The notes under the pieces were generated by a model. That model ran no database searches, was not told the origin of the DNA, and saw only the letters and a list, made by a program, of their open reading frames with translations. Shown here in pieces: positions 1 through 19,146 of a DNA stretch of 30,609 nucleotides. The stretch lies in IMG/VR virus record IMGVR_UViG_3300016265_000403, positions 1 through 30,609 of that record. One strand, 5' to 3'. Source of the DNA: a virus. Taxonomy: Duplodnaviria > Caudoviricetes. Each line of letters begins with the position of its first letter. The stretch's first letter is position 1. The translations under genes were made by a program, and so were the position numbers.

Positions 1-246
1 GAATGGGATTTTGATATGTTAGCAAATGAATGGGATGAATTAGAATTAGATGATTGGGGTCTAACAATAGTTAATAAATCAAATATTGATTTAGATTCAT
101 TTTTTGAAGACACAGAAACAAATAAAGCAGAAAAGGCTAAATTAATATTAGAATATACAACAGATGAAATAGAATTAATAAAAAATGAATTATTAAAATA
201 TGGAACAACATATGAAGATGCAGTTAAAAAACTTTTGAAATTATGA
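1..246 (+). CDS. C-terminal part of a probable ParB/Srx-like N-terminal-domain protein (5' truncated by window edge)
   Basis: Frame 1 is open from base 1: EWDFDMLANEWDELELDDWGL resembles the segment that follows the ParB-N domain in phage ParB-like proteins. The stop overlaps the next ATG (ATGA). The domain itself is outside the window. Confidence 0.5.
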   Translation, partial: EWDFDMLANEWDELELDDWGLTIVNKSNIDLDSFFEDTETNKAEKAKLILEYTTDEIELIKNELLKYGTTYEDAVKKLLKL

Positions 247-982: not shown

Positions 983-1648
983 ATGAAAAAAGCAATAATA
1001 TTATTAAGTGGAGGGCAAGATTCAACAACTTGTCTTTATTGGAGCAAAAAACATTTTAAAGAAATATATGCAATTGGATTTGATTACGGACAAATGCACA
1101 TAAAAGAATTAGAACAAGCAAAAAAAATAGCACAAGACGCAAATGTAGAATATAAAATATTTAATGTTAAAAATTTATTAGCATCAAGCAGTTTAACAAA
1201 ACACACAAATCATAACGATAAAAGTTATATTAATACAGAATTACCAGCGTCTTTTACAAGTGGGAGAAACATATTGTTTCTATCTATTGCTGGAAGTTAT
1301 GCAAGTGAGTTAGGTATTAATGATATTGTTATGGGAGTATGTCAAACCGATTATTCTGGTTATCCAGATTGCAGAAGAACAAGTATTGATGCAATGCAAA
1401 ATGTGTTATCACTTGCTTATGGAAATGGCGATTTTAGAATACATACGCCATTAATGTATTTGACAAAAGCAGAAACTTGGAAAATAGCAAAAGAATTAGA
1501 TTGTTTAAATGTTATTATAAATGATACATTAACCGATTACAATGGGAATGATACAAAAAACGAATGGGGAATGGGAACAAATAATAATCCAGCAACAGAA
1601 TTAAGAATAAAAGGATATTACGAAGCAAAGAAAAACAATTGGATATGA
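983..1648 (+). CDS. queC: 7-cyano-7-deazaguanine synthase QueC, variant without Zn-binding cysteines
   Basis: PP-loop LSGGQDSTT, FDYGQ, GRNILFLS, YSGYPDCR, TPLMYLTKAE. The C-terminal Cys motif is replaced (see findings). Confidence 0.92.
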   Translation: MKKAIILLSGGQDSTTCLYWSKKHFKEIYAIGFDYGQMHIKELEQAKKIAQDANVEYKIFNVKNLLASSSLTKHTNHNDKSYINTELPASFTSGRNILFLSIAGSYASELGINDIVMGVCQTDYSGYPDCRRTSIDAMQNVLSLAYGNGDFRIHTPLMYLTKAETWKIAKELDCLNVIINDTLTDYNGNDTKNEWGMGTNNNPATELRIKGYYEAKKNNWI

Positions 1649-2049
1649 TAATTGAAAAAAAATATCATTTCTATGCCGCACATAGAAACAAACAAGCCGA
1701 TAAAAAATGTGGAAGAATACACGGACACACCTATGAAATAAAATGTTATTTTAAATATAACAATATAAACGAAGGAGGTATAACTTGTTTGTTTAGTGAC
1801 ATTGACAAATTAGTAGAACCAATAATAAAAGAACATTGTCATTATTTGTTGTTATATGAAAAAGACCCATTAGTAGAAATACTTAAATTAGCCAACGAAG
1901 AATTTAAAATTGTTACATTTGAAACATCAGCAGAAAATTTAAGCGTTTGGTTATTTACAAGAATAAAAAACGAAACACAATTGCCCATATTTAAAATAGA
2001 ATTAGCAGAAACAAAATCATCTAATGTTATTTATGAAACTAAAAATTAG
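1645..2049 (+). CDS. queD: 6-carboxy-5,6,7,8-tetrahydropterin synthase QueD
   Basis: FYAAHR...CGRIHGHTY, TSAENL and ET motifs of the T-fold PTPS/QueD family. ATG at 1645 overlaps the queC stop (ATGA). Confidence 0.88.
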   Translation: MIIEKKYHFYAAHRNKQADKKCGRIHGHTYEIKCYFKYNNINEGGITCLFSDIDKLVEPIIKEHCHYLLLYEKDPLVEILKLANEEFKIVTFETSAENLSVWLFTRIKNETQLPIFKIELAETKSSNVIYETKN

Positions 2050-2632
2050 CGAAATTTTTTATTCCCTACAAGGTGAGGGAGCAAGAATAGGAACACCAAC
2101 AATCTTTATAAGAACAAGCGGATGCAAAACAAAAAACGCTTGTTATCAAATGGGAATTAAGTGCGACACAGAATTTGAAAGCGGAAAAGAAATGTTATTA
2201 CAAGAAATAGTTGAATGGATTGATAACAATGCTCAAGGATGTAAACAAATTACTTGGACTGGTGGAGAACCATTAGACCAATTGACAAGTGAAATAACAA
2301 AATATTTTAAAGATTTAGGTTATTACCAAGCAATAGAAACATCTGGATTGCATCCAATAATAGATAACATTGATTTTGTTTGTGTATCTCCAAAGGTAGC
2401 AGAACACATAATAAAGAAAAACTTTACGCAAGTAAACGAATTAAGATATGTTAGGCATTCTGGACAACAAATACCAGAGCCATCAATAAAAGCAGAACAT
2501 TATTGGATTTCTCCTCATTCGGATGGATATACAATTAATACGCAAAATTTAAAACATTGCATAGAATTATGCTTACAAAATCCAAAATGGAAATTATCAG
2601 TACAGACACACAAATTATGGAACATATTATAA
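2033..2632 (+). CDS. queE: 7-carboxy-7-deazaguanine synthase QueE (radical SAM)
   Basis: [45 protein letters not shown]. The cluster-binding Cys are spaced CX5CX6C. Confidence 0.9.
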
Positions 2633-3435
2633 CTTGGAAAGAAATATTGTTAAGAGCAAATAATCTTGACAAATCGTTAAAATACTATGGTGTTCCAAGA
2701 GGTGGGCAACCAATTGCGGCATTATTAAATCCAGTTGATACACCAGAAGAGGCTGACATAATAATTGACGATTTAATAGATAGTGGAAGTACAAGAGAAT
2801 ATTACATAACAAAATATAAGAAACCATTTATTGCATTGTTTGACAAACAAACAGAAAAAGAATTACAAAACAAATGGTTAATATTTCCTTGGGAATTAAA
2901 CGAACAAAGTCCAGAGGAAAACATTAAAAGAATATTACAATACATTGGCGAAGACCCAAATAGAGAGGGATTAAAAGATACACCAAAAAGATATTTAAAA
3001 TTCTTAAAAGAATTTTTGAATCCACCTCAATTTAATTTTACAACATTTGATGCAGAGGGAACAGACGAAATGATAATACAACGCAACATTCCCTTTTATT
3101 CATTGTGTGAACACCATATTGCACCATTCTTTGGAACTGCCGATGTAGCATATATTCCTAATGGAAAAATAGTAGGATTGTCAAAGTTAGCAAGATGCGT
3201 TGATTTGTATGCAAACAAATTACAAAACCAAGAAAGAATAACAACACAAATTGCAGAACGATTAATGCAAGAGTTAAATCCAAAAGGAGTAGCAGTAAGA
3301 TTAACGGCTCAACATTTGTGTATGTCAATGAGAGGATGCAAAAAACATAACACAGAAACAACCACAACCAAATTACTTGGATTGTTTATGACAGAACATA
3401 TGGCGAGAAACGAATTTTTGCAAATGGTTAAATAA
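2617..3435 (+). CDS. folE: Fusion of a type I phosphoribosyltransferase (Gpt-like) domain and GTP cyclohydrolase I
   Basis: N-terminal half has [17 protein letters not shown] (PRPP loop) and WLIFPWE. C-terminal half has [30 protein letters not shown] and HLCMSMRG. It is one open frame; ATG 2617 was chosen because it overlaps the queE end. Confidence 0.9.
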
Positions 3436-3494
3436 CAAAACACAAAAAGCAAATAACAATATTTGTAGTTATACACCATAATAACACAAACAAA

Positions 3495-3896
3495 ATGCCC
3501 AGCAATAATCCCAATGTTATGAAGAACCTTGCTCCAAAATGGGAGAAAGGCAAAAGCGGTAATCCAAAAGGCAGACCACCAAAAATGGAAACAATATTAA
3601 AACAATACTTTTTGGATGAACACCAAATGAAATTGACAAAAGGACAAATGCAAGATGTTATCAAAAACCTATTGTCAAAAACAAGAGCAGAATTAGTTGA
3701 ACTTGCTAACAATGACCAGTTGCCTTTTTGGATTTCAATGATAGCACAAAAAGCCAACAGAGATTTTAAAAAAGGTTCTGTGCATTTGTTAGATGTGTTA
3801 TTTGACAGAGTTTACGGCAAACCAAAAGAAGAACAAGAAACAAATGTTATAGTAGAACAACCATTGTTTTCGCCATTAAATCCGAATGGAGAATAA
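3495..3896 (+). CDS. Probable terminase small subunit
   Basis: N-terminal WEKGKSGNPKGRPP motif (DUF5681-like) and DRVYGKP; overlaps the start of terL. Confidence 0.65.
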   Translation: MPSNNPNVMKNLAPKWEKGKSGNPKGRPPKMETILKQYFLDEHQMKLTKGQMQDVIKNLLSKTRAELVELANNDQLPFWISMIAQKANRDFKKGSVHLLDVLFDRVYGKPKEEQETNVIVEQPLFSPLNPNGE

Positions 3897-5082: not shown

Positions 5083-5748
5083 ATGAAAATTATTCATTAT
5101 TACCACATCCTTTGCAACCCAAATACCAACATAACACATTTGCTTGTGTTACAACATATGAACGCAATCTGTAATTATGGGCTGGTTTCTGTGTTAGATG
5201 AAATTCGTATTGGTCTTGTTGGCTTACCAGAACAACGCAAGATTGTAAAAGAAATGTTGCAACAATCAATGGTAAAAGACAAGATAAAAATTGTAATAGA
5301 ACGGCAACGAGCAGACGAGCATATAACATTACAACATATGCACAACGCAAGTCAAGAAGAAGAATGTTATTATATCTATGGTCATACCAAAGGAGCATAC
5401 CATACGCATTTCTCAAATCTTGTTTGGGTTCGGTCAATGATATTCTATAACATTGTTGGATGGGGCAAAATGTTAGAAAAACTTGAAAACACCAAAATAG
5501 ATTGTGCTGGTTGTTTTTGGCTAACAAAAGAAGAATATCCAGAAATACTAAAATTTGACCCAGATGGAACACCATTTTTTGGTGGTAACTTTTATTGGGC
5601 AAAATCAAGTTATGTTAAAACATTGCCTATTGTTCCAAAGCAAGACAGATACAAAGCAGAACGATGGATTGGATTAAATGACCCAAAGATTTATTGCATT
5701 CAAGGAGGTCATCCAGAACATTTGCAAAACCACATTATAACATTTTAA
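5083..5748 (+). CDS. Hypothetical protein, possibly glycosyltransferase-related
   Basis: Motif string YIYGHTKG...W...M...W...FFGGNFYWAK...RYKAERWIG; first gene of a tight three-gene block with an acyltransferase and a GT-B enzyme. Confidence 0.4.
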   Translation: MKIIHYYHILCNPNTNITHLLVLQHMNAICNYGLVSVLDEIRIGLVGLPEQRKIVKEMLQQSMVKDKIKIVIERQRADEHITLQHMHNASQEEECYYIYGHTKGAYHTHFSNLVWVRSMIFYNIVGWGKMLEKLENTKIDCAGCFWLTKEEYPEILKFDPDGTPFFGGNFYWAKSSYVKTLPIVPKQDRYKAERWIGLNDPKIYCIQGGHPEHLQNHIITF

Positions 5749-5749
5749 A

Positions 5750-6370
5750 ATGAATAATAACACAATCCATCCAACGGCATTTGTAGACCGCAATGTAGTG
5801 TTAGGAAAAAACAATTACATTGGACCATATTGTTACATTACTGGTAATACAATTATTGGTAACAATAACCGATTTGAGGCACATTGTTCTATTGGAACAC
5901 AAGCCGAACACCGAGAATATATGGGCAATAATCCAGAAAAAATATCTAACAAAGTTTACATTGGGAACAATAACATTATCCGAGAATTTGTAACCATCAA
6001 TGCTGGTACAAAAAGTATGACCTCAATACGGCATAACAATACATTGTTGCGAGGCTCACATATTGGACACGATGTAACAATAGAAGACAATTGCAACATA
6101 TCTTGTAACGCTTTGATTGGAGGACATTGTTATATTATGTCTGGTGTTAATCTTGGGTTAGGTTGCATAATTCATCAATTTGTAAAGATTGGAGCGTATG
6201 CAATGATTGGAATGGGTGGTGTTGTAACAAAAAATAAAATGGTGTTTTGTGGAGAAATGTGGTACGGCAATCCAGCAAAATTCCAATCTTTAAACCAAAT
6301 AGGCATTTCAAGAAATAATATAACACAAGAACAATTATTGGAATTAAACCAACGATATATTAAATTATGA
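5750..6370 (+). CDS. LpxA-like hexapeptide-repeat (left-handed beta-helix) acyltransferase
   Basis: IHPTA start, repeated [IV]GxNNxI hexads, IREFVTINAGT, catalytic-type HIGHD, and GNPAK...LNQIGISR. Shorter than cellular LpxA. Confidence 0.85.
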   Translation: MNNNTIHPTAFVDRNVVLGKNNYIGPYCYITGNTIIGNNNRFEAHCSIGTQAEHREYMGNNPEKISNKVYIGNNNIIREFVTINAGTKSMTSIRHNNTLLRGSHIGHDVTIEDNCNISCNALIGGHCYIMSGVNLGLGCIIHQFVKIGAYAMIGMGGVVTKNKMVFCGEMWYGNPAKFQSLNQIGISRNNITQEQLLELNQRYIKL

Positions 6371-7260
6371 AAGTTTTAATTGGTTGTTTGTCATTTAAGA
6401 ATTTAACTGGTGCAGAATACTATTGTTATGAATTAGCAAAAGAATTGTTAGAACAAGGCAACGATGTAACATTAGTTGCTTATGAGGTAGGACAACCATT
6501 GTTATCCAAGGCTTGGGAGATAGGTTTAAAAGTTTACAAGATGCAAACATTGGTTGAAGCAATGCGGATACCAAATAGCACCATAACACCAGATGTAATC
6601 CATACGCAACATCAACCAGTAACGGAAACGCTTGTAAATCTATTTCCAGATGTTCCCAAAGTAACAACAATCCATTCCGAATTGTTGGACATTGAACAAC
6701 CAATATTACACGAAAGCATAAAACATTATATTGCTATAACACCAAATGTCAAAGAACATTTGTGTAACACAACATCAATCCCCAAAGACCAAATAACAAT
6801 TGTTGCAAATCCAATAGATGGAAAACGATTTAACACCGATAACACAAAAGACGATGGGTATATTTTGTTATGTGGGTCAATAAATTATTTGCGTATTCAA
6901 ATGTTAGAAAGTATTGCAAAAATAACAAAAAATCAAAAGCGGCAATTAATTGTTGTTGGTAATTTGTTTGAACAAAAAGCAATAGAAATATTAAAACAAA
7001 AACACATAACACAATTTAACGAAACAAACGATATAGAACGCTATGTTAAGAATTGTCATATGACTTGTGGATTGTATTATGGTAGAGCAATAATTGAAGG
7101 ATGGTTATGTGGTAAATCGGCATATGGGTATGATGTCGGATTAGATGGTGTTATACAAAATTGTAACATTTACCATCCACAAACAATACCAGACATTGAC
7201 AAATTTTTAACGCAAAATGTAACAAAACAAATTGTTGCTATTTATAATCAAATAAAATAA
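6367..7260 (+). CDS. Glycosyltransferase, GT-B fold (GT4-like)
   Basis: MKVLI...TGAEYYCYELAKELLEQGNDV, PDVIHTQH, TIHS, NPID, and C-terminal GRAIIEGWLCGK. Confidence 0.8.
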   Translation: MKVLIGCLSFKNLTGAEYYCYELAKELLEQGNDVTLVAYEVGQPLLSKAWEIGLKVYKMQTLVEAMRIPNSTITPDVIHTQHQPVTETLVNLFPDVPKVTTIHSELLDIEQPILHESIKHYIAITPNVKEHLCNTTSIPKDQITIVANPIDGKRFNTDNTKDDGYILLCGSINYLRIQMLESIAKITKNQKRQLIVVGNLFEQKAIEILKQKHITQFNETNDIERYVKNCHMTCGLYYGRAIIEGWLCGKSAYGYDVGLDGVIQNCNIYHPQTIPDIDKFLTQNVTKQIVAIYNQIK

Positions 7261-7266
7261 CACAAA

Positions 7267-7824
7267 ATGAAATTAACGCAATTGACCATAGAACAATTTC
7301 AGCAAGTTGCTAACATTGAGTTTACGCAAGAACTGGATATGTTAGACAAGAAGATTGGTGTTATATCCGTAGTGGACAAAAAATCATTGGATGAATTATA
7401 CAAAGAACAACCAATGTATATCCACAAACGATATACCGAAATCATAACACAATGGAACAGATTACCAGCAATAATCTTCAAGACAAGATTTAAGGCTGGT
7501 AACAAATGGTACAAGCCAATATTGTACACAGACCAATTAAACGCTGGTCAGTTAATTGACTTGATGTCTTATAACACAAGCAATGAACAAGAACTTGTAA
7601 AAAACTTGCATAACATAATGGCTACATTGTGTTGTGAATGCAAGTTCTACAAATGGTTTCCAGAAAAATATACATCTGCAACACATAAGCAACGAGCAGA
7701 ATATTTGTTACAGAATGCAAAGATTAAAGATGTTTGGGGAGTTGTCAGTTTTTTTTTGTTGAGTTCCGAAAGTTACTTGAAGGCTTTACAGACATATTCC
7801 AACAACAATTTGAAGAAGATGTAA
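7267..7824 (+). CDS. Putative tail assembly chaperone (gpG-like)
   Basis: Ends shortly after a T9 slippery run (VSFFL) that opens into an overlapping -1 frame ORF; lies ahead of the tail genes. Function is inferred. Confidence 0.5.
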   Translation: MKLTQLTIEQFQQVANIEFTQELDMLDKKIGVISVVDKKSLDELYKEQPMYIHKRYTEIITQWNRLPAIIFKTRFKAGNKWYKPILYTDQLNAGQLIDLMSYNTSNEQELVKNLHNIMATLCCECKFYKWFPEKYTSATHKQRAEYLLQNAKIKDVWGVVSFFLLSSESYLKALQTYSNNNLKKM

Positions 7825-8039
7825 CAGAAGATGAAACACAAGACAATGGGCAAGGCATTGATTTGTTATCACATTATGGATGGTTGTTAGTGGTGTACCA
7901 AATGGCTAACAAGGATATGTTACGCTTTAAAGATGTCTATGAATTGTCGGCATTAGAGTTTTTAAACTATGCCGTTATGTTAAATGACATCAAAAAGCAA
8001 GAAGAATGGGATTTAAGAAATTCCATTAATAACACATAA
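7734..8039 (+). CDS. -1 frame extension of the 7267 ORF (gpGT-like C-terminal part)
   Basis: Only a weak TTG start precedes the slippery run. The frame has an acidic linker followed by a folded-looking segment (HYGWLLVVYQMA...LEFLNY) and fills the gap to the 8070 gene. Confidence 0.6.
   Translation: MGSCQFFFVEFRKLLEGFTDIFQQQFEEDVTEDETQDNGQGIDLLSHYGWLLVVYQMANKDMLRFKDVYELSALEFLNYAVMLNDIKKQEEWDLRNSINNT
7749..7757 (+). other. Candidate programmed -1 ribosomal frameshift site (T TTT TTT)
   Basis: AGT TTT TTT TTG in the 7267 frame. A -1 slip reads ...SFFFVEFRKLLEG... through to TAA at 8039. Confidence 0.65.
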
Positions 8040-8069
8040 CACTAATTTGACAAAAGCGTATTTGACATT

Positions 8070-8723
8070 ATGTTAGATTTCAAACTAAAATTAAAGGTCA
8101 AATCTGGTGGAGTATTGACAGAAAAAGATTTTGAATCATTAAAGGATATTGGTATAACAACAGAACCAAGTTCCAATGATTTAGACGAAGATGTAAAAAC
8201 AATTGCTAATTTTGTCAAAGAAGCAATTGACAAAATGAAAAGTGAATTGTTATCACAAAAAGCATACACATCACGCAGAACATTAATCCAAGGCATTAAG
8301 CCGTTACCAATTGTTGCTAACAAACAAAAAATTGTTATAGCAATTGTTGCTCCATATTATTGGGATTTCATCAACGAAGGTGTAAAAGGAAAGTATAACA
8401 CAAAACAAGGTGCAGAAAAATCGCCATATCAATACGGAGATAAAGCACCACCAGTAAAAGCAATGTTGCAATACATCAAAGCAAAACCATTGCAAATTAG
8501 TGTTACACCAAGAACAAAGAATGGTAGGGAGATGAAAGTAACAAAACGAGATATTGCAAAACAGACAAAACGAGCCGCATATGCAATGAGCCGTAGCATT
8601 CAAGCAAATGGTATTAGGGGAACACATTTTGTCAATAACACATTAACAACACAATTTGTAGAAGAATTTGAACAAATAATGTTAGAAAGATTTCAAAAAC
8701 GAGTAACAATAAAAATTAAATAA
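8070..8723 (+). CDS. Putative virion morphogenesis/tail-completion protein (HK97 gp10-like)
   Basis: Basic protein with APYYWDFINEGVKG, PP...I..K and AYAMSRSIQANGIRGTHF patterns; located in the tail block. Confidence 0.5.
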   Translation: MLDFKLKLKVKSGGVLTEKDFESLKDIGITTEPSSNDLDEDVKTIANFVKEAIDKMKSELLSQKAYTSRRTLIQGIKPLPIVANKQKIVIAIVAPYYWDFINEGVKGKYNTKQGAEKSPYQYGDKAPPVKAMLQYIKAKPLQISVTPRTKNGREMKVTKRDIAKQTKRAAYAMSRSIQANGIRGTHFVNNTLTTQFVEEFEQIMLERFQKRVTIKIK

Positions 8724-18014: not shown

Positions 18015-18050
18015 ACAGAGCCTCACCAGAAATGGTGGGGCTTTGTTATA
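18015..18050 (+). terminator. Stem-loop after the capsid/tail-tube genes, probable intrinsic terminator
   Basis: ACAGAGCCTCACCA-GAAA-TGGTGGGGCTTTGT: 14-bp stem with two G-U pairs and a GAAA tetraloop, followed by an imperfect U-rich tail. Confidence 0.7.
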
Positions 18051-18054
18051 TTTG
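18047..18054 (+). promoter_or_regulatory. Candidate Bacteroidota -7 promoter element (TAnnTTTG)
   Basis: TATATTTG 18 nt upstream of ATG 18073, with a second copy at 17977-17984. No clear -33 element. Confidence 0.35.
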
Positions 18055-18072
18055 GGCAAATTATGTTATAAT

Positions 18073-19146
18073 ATGAGAGTTTGCATTTGTTACAATGTTC
18101 ATCCAACTGGTTGTAGTTATTATCGGTTGGAAATGCCTAATGCGTATATTGCTGATAATTACCCAGATGTGGATTTTGTTAGCACAGACAATTTGCTTAA
18201 TTTGTCAAAAGAGCAATTAGAAGGCATTGACATTTTCTTGTTTAATCGGTATTGGTTGTTAGGGGATGCAGAAGATATTGTCAAAATGTATGATGGGTTA
18301 AGGCAATTGGGAGCAAAAATTGTGTTAGATATGGATGATTTTTGGTCATTGGAAAGTGGTCATCCAATGTATGCCGATTATACAAAAAACAAAACGGATG
18401 AAAAATTAAGGCAACAAATGAGGTTAGCAGACCACATTATAACCACCACAACACATTTAGCAGAAAAAATATCTGTGTTAAATAAGAATATAACAATACT
18501 GCCTAATGAACCATACGAGAAATACGAGCAGTTTATTCCAGACCCAAACCAAGAACAAGAAAAAGAATTGACAAAATTTGGTTGGTTTGGTGCGGCACAA
18601 CATACAGAAGACATTGAATTAATGCGTGAATCAATGCAATCGTTGTGTTATGATAACACATTAAATAATCGGTATCGTTTGTATTTGGCTGGTTGGAATG
18701 AGCCTAATCCAATCTATGAGGGATATGAAAGAGTATTTAGTAACAACCATCAAAACCCAAATTACGGACGCATTAAAGCGGCTGATATTTATTCTTATGT
18801 TAGTGGATACAACTTTGTAAATGTTGCACTTGCACCATTAAAAGACACAAAGTTTAACAAGTTAAAATCCGAATTGAAAATCATTGAGGCTGGATGGATG
18901 AACAAAGCCGTAATTGCATCTGACATTATACCATATTCCGATGTTATAACGCATAATAAAAACGGCATATTGATACCACAACACAAGCGAAGCGGATGGT
19001 ATAAAGCAATGAAAGCCTTAATTAATGACAAAGCAATGCGTATTGAATTGGCTAACAATTTAACACAAGACATTAAACGCTTGTTTGACATCAAGAAAAC
19101 TGGTCAAAGAAGATACGAATTGTATAAGCAATTGACAGAAAATTAG
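18073..19146 (+). CDS. Glycosyltransferase, GT-B fold (GT4-like)
   Basis: GCSYYRL.MP, VLDMDDFW, ADHIITTT..LA, LPN, FGWFG...H..D, and VALAPLKDTKFNKLKSELKIIEAG...VIASD. Confidence 0.82.
   Translation: MRVCICYNVHPTGCSYYRLEMPNAYIADNYPDVDFVSTDNLLNLSKEQLEGIDIFLFNRYWLLGDAEDIVKMYDGLRQLGAKIVLDMDDFWSLESGHPMYADYTKNKTDEKLRQQMRLADHIITTTTHLAEKISVLNKNITILPNEPYEKYEQFIPDPNQEQEKELTKFGWFGAAQHTEDIELMRESMQSLCYDNTLNNRYRLYLAGWNEPNPIYEGYERVFSNNHQNPNYGRIKAADIYSYVSGYNFVNVALAPLKDTKFNKLKSELKIIEAGWMNKAVIASDIIPYSDVITHNKNGILIPQHKRSGWYKAMKALINDKAMRIELANNLTQDIKRLFDIKKTGQRRYELYKQLTEN

Follow-up and report, generated by a model that had tools for sequence, protein, structure and literature searches.

A loop-less phosphoribosyltransferase domain fused to FolE in phage DpdA clusters, a putative guanine scavenger

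What does a phosphoribosyltransferase (PRT) domain do on the GTP cyclohydrolase of a phage DNA-modification cluster? The question arises from a window that spans an entire virus record (30,609 bp, 33% G+C, CheckV completeness 97%), whose sequence is present in freshwater, sediment and aquatic metagenome runs; RNA runs contain just 0.08–0.14 of its words. All five genes of the phage DpdA 7-deazaguanine system (dpdA, folE, queD, queE and queC) lie in the window, with the PRT domain at the start of the FolE-coding gene:

1..246, + strand: C-terminal part of a conserved upstream gene, truncated where the contig begins
243..974, + strand: DpdA DNA transglycosylase (phrog_887; motifs DSGAF, ELDID, VHGLG and SVDSTSW; not DpdA3-like)
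983..1648, + strand: QueC (preQ0 synthase)
1639..2049, + strand: QueD (CPH4 synthase)
2024..2632, + strand: QueE (CDG synthase), overlapping the start of the fusion gene
2617..2901, + strand: Gpt/XGPRT-like type I PRT domain without loop II (R28, D51, D52, D55, T59, K77, W87, P91, W92, E93)
2902..3435, + strand: FolE (GTP cyclohydrolase IA), in frame with the PRT domain; first helix at residues 99–109

The gene at the left edge corresponds to one that precedes dpdA in 55 of 83 loci, and its homologue in locus L190 carries a ParB N-terminal domain; 3′ of the fusion gene lie a small terminase, putative and named from its position, and the large terminase. The phage likely swaps some DNA guanines for a protective 7-deazaguanine, with dPreQ0 as the predicted product. 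Its genome encodes a replication initiator and the helicase DnaB. A scan of 44 ORFs of the window, a 97%-complete genome, turned up no polymerase, kinase or RNR, which leaves a nucleotide-level route without visible support, and a search of the window for nucleotide-tailoring enzymes (GMP reductase, UbiD, Nudix and kinases) found none. Amid the terminase and virion genes are an LpxA-like hexapeptide acyltransferase (E 5e-45 to TIGR01852, under the cut-off) and two GT4 glycosyltransferases (5083–7260 and 18043–19146, + strand), which possibly act in virion or DNA glycosylation.

The fusion gene (2617..3435, +) is a single open frame of 272 aa, from an ATG at 2617 to a stop ending at 3435, with an alternative in-frame ATG at 2587. 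A preliminary description had read it as a roughly 95-aa type I PRTase, like xanthine-guanine PRTase, running without a stop into a full FolE, and both parts of that reading were borne out. The FolE half matches PF01227 (E 1e-64, residues 100–271), scores 200 bits against TIGR00063, above the family cut-off of 181.6, and keeps the zinc-ligand motifs CEHH (164) and HLCM (233). Contigs from all four runs of other studies (four studies) cover the junction and differ by substitutions, never by indels, and one of them runs unbroken across 2400–3600. Together with the fused relatives described below, these indel-free contigs rule out a frameshift or assembly artefact at the junction.

Identification of the PRT half came from its fold, its motifs and a family profile. 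Residues 1–95 alone had no Pfam match, a weak match to the PHROG ‘phosphoribosyl transferase’ (E 0.006) and weak phmmer matches to XGPRT; the PRT family profile matches XGPRT chains at E 4e-6. Against the Gpt equivalog NF006613 the domain scores 22 bits and fails the curated threshold of 138. AlphaFold modelled the full fusion with a pLDDT of 94.1 and the PRT domain alone with 97.2. With the full model, FolE alone appeared among the Foldseek matches listed; with the PRT domain model, the best match was XGPRT (E 2e-5, TM 0.79), which was also the best solved fold in VIA-align (Z 9.7, rmsd 2.6 Å, 95 residues aligned), followed by two archaeal purine PRTs within 1 Z of it.

The domain carries the motifs GVPRGG (25–30), an 11-residue stretch at 49–59 and WLIFPWE (87–93). 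We mapped its residues onto an enterobacterial Gpt read from record OR845500; OR845500.1 and OR850930.1 are short ‘phage’ records with an identical enterobacterial gpt, probably host DNA. Gpt R37/G38/G39 correspond to R28–G30, D88/D89 to D51/D52, D92 to D55, T96 to T59, K115 to K77, W134 to W87 and P138/W139/D140 to P91/W92/E93. The PRPP-binding loop and the 6-oxopurine pocket residues (D55, K77, W87 and E93) are thus all retained, where we assume purine-pocket roles for Gpt Lys115, Trp134 and Asp140 and take Gpt D92, our D55, to be the equivalent of human HGPRT D137. Across 147 distant representatives (50% clustering) the active-site residues are 83–100% conserved: D51 in 147/147, D52 in 146, D55 in 137 (plus 5 Glu), T59 in 146, K77 in 121/146, W87 in 139/143, P91 in 140/142 and E93 in 139/141. 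In 120 close fusions D51, D52, K77 and W87 are present in all and D55 in 119. The median dN/dS, from 63 non-independent pairs of 61 sequences, was 0.088 for the PRT domain and 0.023 for FolE, and the PRT domain is under purifying selection (dN/dS ~0.09).

One element is missing. By hand count, 18 residues separate the RGG motif from the PRPP-loop strand, against 46 in Gpt, and the spacer ranges from 18 to 36 across the family; about 28 residues are absent relative to Gpt, including the flexible catalytic loop II, a deletion that the label ‘minimal’ in the preliminary description had overlooked. Since deletion of only seven loop-II residues lowers the kcat of T. cruzi HGPRT by 380–840-fold (PMC9536471), any catalytic activity of the loop-less domain is, by analogy, probably slow.

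The fusion proved to be widespread in phage genomes. Searches returned 336 fusion-length proteins matching the PRT domain, with PF01227 in all 120 listed, and in a first IMG/VR scan 79 of 80 loci were fused, the other being cut by a contig end. We pooled 186 viral and metagenome loci (L001-080, L084-145, L190-194 and L306-344), leaving aside cultured records and the weak matches L345-347, which have longer PRTs. The pool reduces to 115 distinct proteins, of which 109 are fused, five stand alone and one is truncated, close kin being over-represented because similarity to the query was how the loci were found. Among the 47 loci flanked by 4 kb or more on both sides, queE was found in 47, dpdA in 46, folE in 46, queD in 41 and queC in 26, and queries for dNMP kinase and RNR matched none; the one locus without a dpdA match contains an ORF with a DSG motif, possibly a divergent DpdA. 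Cluster partners vary, with Gat-QueC in phage NP1 and QueF in L312. Among cultured phages, 32 records carry the PRT domain, annotated solely as GTP cyclohydrolase or not at all. In the three checked, NP1, VpKK5 and ply2008005c, it is fused and inside que/dpdA clusters, and the fusion also sits unannotated in PaMx25, JG012 and Quinobequin-P09. Three fusions (P0265, P0271 and P0290) contain an intein inside FolE, two of them with an HNH endonuclease.

When 1.84 billion representatives were searched with a profile, 1,284 matched at E 0.001 or better, including ordinary PRTases at the weak end; among the 150 matches listed, 28 had a full FolE, 24 a partial FolE and 98 no FolE match, some of these being fragments. 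A tail resembling the first FolE helix (residues 99–109), the part of FolE that stand-alone PRT forms retain, was seen in 36 of 38 hand-picked stand-alone representatives. Stand-alone contexts rest on few loci, as single-protein scans with these forms mostly returned fused ones. In L190 a stand-alone PRT at 8031-8429 precedes a different, 216-aa FolE that is 39% identical to that of the window; in L306 one is flanked by queC and a dpdA2-like gene, the latter directly after it, and the 16-kb locus gave no folE match; and in L335 both the PRT and the FolE that follows carry the FolE-type helix. L335 (G406) is a 170-kb virus contig in which the stand-alone PRT directly precedes folE and then oxidoreductase, glycosyltransferase and dpdA2-like genes. 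P0293 has the loop-less domain joined to a second, full PRT domain in place of FolE, and a cluster look-up of ten representatives (nine stand-alone forms and P0293) returned no names. On a quick tree that leaves 84 of 133 forks open, fused and stand-alone forms are mixed within a single clade (SH-aLRT 99), and fragments made by contig ends or frameshifts may account for some of the ‘alone’ rows; this mixing suggests that the PRT domain was split from FolE repeatedly.

Six PRT queries against 50,697 cultured records recovered the fused lineages together with phiST-like, immuto, Brevundimonas, Campylobacter and PA5oct-like phages, and annotation, search or literature places deazaguanine genes in one representative of each of these five non-fused groups. 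The other matches were two short records identical to host gpt, Salmonella hpt, two unannotated faecal records and phage PIP. FolE was found in 395 cultured-phage records, and each query matched just 20–44 records; in the Escherichia records, 41 of them with FolE, the sole PRT match was one 2.3-kb host-like gpt fragment. A Gpt-like gene is present in all three phage groups reported to replace guanine fully, those of phiST, immuto_2-6A and CP220 (PMC10516641). The Gpt-like proteins of these three phages and of MaInes and MIJ3 fall outside the fused clade. In phiST and MaInes the gene adjoins a dNMP kinase and RNR, in MIJ3 it lies beside queE and a dpdA2-like gene with folE 58 kb away, and the Campylobacter-phage record F379 is annotated ‘purine phosphoribosyltransferase / queuosine biosynthesis protein’. 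MaInes, where RNR, dNMP kinase, folE and gpt stand side by side, is a candidate fully G-replaced phage; its unannotated gene MAINES_00850 (L252:2862-3662, −), between queE and the polymerase, resembles immuto DpdA3 weakly and at the N-terminus only (E 2e-5). The dpdA2-like gene of MIJ3, a PA5oct-like jumbo phage (L254; LR588166.1:130529-131335; MIJ3_00158), is unannotated and lies 3 kb from gpt-queE.

Which base the domain might use can be approached by comparison with TubE, a demonstrated CDG-PRPP transferase of a purine-PRT family (PMC6112128). We collected TubE-like proteins through queC and PRT searches of 301 and 401 Streptomyces genomes, recognizing them by cluster layout and gathering 30 of 33 PRT matches as loci. 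All 24 of the strongest Streptomyces PRTs have DD-x-x-G at the N7-facing position and mostly Arg or Asn at Lys115, a signature that comes from mutually related proteins, not 24 independent events, and from a set that does not contain TubE itself. Of 17 TubE-like loci with a wider region, 16 have queD, queE, folE or queC close by, and in six the tblastn order gives the tubercidin layout (QueD-QueE-FolE-GMP reductase-PRT-UbiD-Nudix, in agreement with the tub table), five of these being partly confirmed by Pfam (GMP reductase, UbiD and a 168-aa Nudix). The six weakest, housekeeping-type Streptomyces Gpt-like proteins all have DDVADTGKT and Lys, with no que genes nearby at the three loci checked. 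The phage domain keeps Asp55 and Lys77, against Gly and Arg in the tubercidin-cluster PRTs, and the N7-facing Asp is also kept by the Gpt-like proteins of phiST, immuto_2-6A, CP220, MaInes and MIJ3. In human HGPRT the PRPP-loop Asp comes within 2.8 Å of N7 (PMC11089518), and a carboxyl or nitrile at C7 would be expected to clash with such an Asp. The phage PRTs also form a clade separate from the TubE-like one (SH-aLRT 99, quick tree). A primer scan of GTDB genomes for tubE gave 43 matches, and the two Streptomyces ones, once translated, were not tubE. The Streptomyces loci L291, L292 and L294 hold queD-queE-folE-PRT clusters that are candidate deazapurine nucleoside pathways, the L292 cluster continuing with a thymidylate-kinase-like gene, a radical SAM gene and a DegT aminotransferase, and in L300 a reverse transcriptase (6913-7854, +) lies within a queC-queD-queE-folE cluster with a glycosyltransferase, a radical SAM gene and a Gly-type PRT.

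We hold it to be somewhat probable that the PRT domain is a slow guanine PRTase that clears the guanine ejected by DpdA and returns it to GMP. DpdA would insert preQ0 into phage DNA, ejecting guanine, and the loop-less Gpt-type domain would remove it by converting guanine and PRPP slowly to GMP. Each modification by DpdA ejects one guanine, and free guanine is readily put back by bacterial DpdA, whose insertion of [14C]guanine reached levels consistent with preQ0 insertion (PMC10164549); removal of guanine would stop futile G-for-G exchange and raise the modification level. Phage CAjan carries 25–28% preQ0 (PMC10484667), and if the 25% is borrowed for the window, about 2,500 of its 10,193 G would be released as guanine per genome copy. 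Because dpdA is found in 46 of the 47 well-flanked loci, QueC in only 26, and partners vary, the common denominator appears to be the ejected guanine and not one deaza base. Guanine salvage would fit the conservation of the purine pocket, the close association with dpdA and the occurrence of independent Gpt-like genes in other deazaguanine phages, and survival of the domain apart from FolE in L190 and L306 would favour it. Guanine could also re-enter the GTP pool drained by FolE, and as the step from GMP to GTP depends on host kinases, no channelling into FolE is implied; the ‘closed recycling loop’ feeding GTP to FolE that was first proposed is thus overstated. Fusion would provide co-expression and probably an oligomer scaffold. 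Several points count against a guanine scavenger. Loop II is deleted and the domain scores far below the Gpt cut-off; it is dispensable, most of the 395 FolE-bearing cultured records having given no PRT match; and a role that no such phage could do without is contradicted by the preQ0 level of CAjan and by the Escherichia FolE records, which lack a phage PRT match. Hosts, moreover, usually have salvage enzymes of their own.

The main rival, which we consider somewhat unlikely, is a non-catalytic sensor of GMP and PRPP (or ppGpp) that tunes FolE so that preQ0 synthesis spares GTP. PRT folds serve as regulators in PyrR and PurR, and a sensor would account for a family that has lost loop II throughout and kept invariant ligand-binding residues, for the fusion to FolE in 109 of 115 distinct proteins and for stand-alone forms that mostly lie just before folE and bear the FolE-helix-like tail, as do both neighbours in L335; that tail would also fit a FolE-docking role. 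A partner of FolE is hard to reconcile with L306, where the PRT sits beside a dpdA2-like gene with no folE match, or with L190, where it persists beside an unrelated FolE, and the separate gain of loop-bearing Gpt genes by phiST and MaInes points to a need for the reaction itself. Binding of guanine or GMP without useful turnover, as a sink or product buffer, or salvage of xanthine or hypoxanthine for general purine supply unrelated to DpdA, seems improbable to us: Gpt relatives take several 6-oxopurines, to judge from the names of solved structures, and loss of the loop suggests poor catalysis, but stoichiometric binding poorly matches the estimated guanine release, and the near-exclusive tie to deazaguanine clusters would be unexpected for general salvage.

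The preliminary description had offered as its second alternative that the PRT ribosylates a 7-deazaguanine base to a nucleotide, allowing a pre-replicative route alongside DpdA. The base would be CDG, preQ0 or ADG, the reaction would resemble that of TubE, and it could serve such a route or detoxify the base. Beyond the TubE precedent on CDG (PMC6112128), this is favoured by the Gpt-like genes of all three fully replaced groups, by the dNMP kinase and RNR that adjoin those of phiST and MaInes, and by the ADG nucleoside seen in CP220-infected cells (cited in PMC10516641). It is nevertheless unlikely on the sequence comparisons, and we give it a low probability, because the Asp is kept where all 24 TubE-like proteins have Gly and no polymerase, kinase or RNR turned up among the 44 ORFs scanned; Lys77, the separate clade and the lack of kinase or RNR matches in all 47 related loci also speak against it. 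A vestigial or purely structural appendage would fit the many FolE phages without the domain and the absence of a Pfam match, and is very improbable given a dN/dS of 0.09, the active-site residues held invariant in 147 distant representatives and retention of the domain after its separation from FolE.

Taking guanine scavenging further, we propose tentatively, as a possibility of some weight, that these proteins are catalytically competent loop-less minimal purine PRTs and provide phage DpdA systems with an overlooked ‘guanine pull’ step, in which Gpt-type guanine removal, gained several times, helps to set the extent of G replacement and may be the missing factor in the failed E. coli reconstitution of the 100%-replacing DpdA3 systems. 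Competence of the loop-less domain may then come from the FolE scaffold or through the FolE-derived helix. If true, the fate of ejected guanine is an unrecognized step in a well-studied phage anti-restriction pathway, one that bears on how modification levels from 0.1% to 100% arise; a 95-residue PRTase without a supposedly essential loop would be a natural test of that loop’s role, and the Asp/Gly position is a simple candidate predictor of purine versus 7-deazapurine PRTases. Cultured carriers (NP1-like phages and VpKK5) make the fusion directly testable.

The PRT–FolE fusion is real and widespread, and as a variant it is apparently undescribed. The PRT domain goes unmentioned in the main text of Hutinet 2019, Cui 2023, Olsen 2023 and PMC10164549, and no phosphoribosyltransferase turned up in that of PMC6884629, PMC10516641 or PMC10484667; the PMC10516641 supplement has just two HHpred rows with the term, both unrelated. 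No description of the fusion came up in the papers covered by a full-text literature search; Crippen 2019 (J Virol) or a 2024 MMBR review may treat the Campylobacter-phage PRT.

Among known systems, Gpt/XGPRT (PDB 1A95-1A98, 1NUL, 4JLS, 6KP5; NCBIfam NF006613) share with the phage domain the fold (Z 9.7, rmsd 2.6 Å over 95 residues), the RGG loop, the DD-x-x-D-[ST]-G-x-T PRPP loop and the equivalents of Lys115, Trp134 and PW[DE]. The phage domain has 95 aa against 152, the roughly 28 residues removed including loop II (SSYDHDNQR), and, unlike Gpt/XGPRT, it comes either fused to FolE or with a FolE-like helix as a cap. The 7-deazapurine PRTases TubE and ToyH are also Gpt-like, encoded beside folE, queD and queE, with the same WxxFPWE end, but they have a long loop II, Gly at the N7-facing Asp and mostly Arg or Asn at Lys115, whereas the phage domain carries Asp and Lys at these positions and belongs to a separate clade. 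The stand-alone Gpt-like genes of phiST, immuto_2-6A, CP220, MaInes and MIJ3 resemble it in their deazaguanine-phage setting and N7-facing Asp; the immuto protein is shortened too and encoded directly before folE, whereas those of phiST and MaInes retain loop II. With the known phage DpdA clusters the window shares all five genes, for FolE, QueD, QueE, QueC and DpdA, and the PRT domain is an addition to them.
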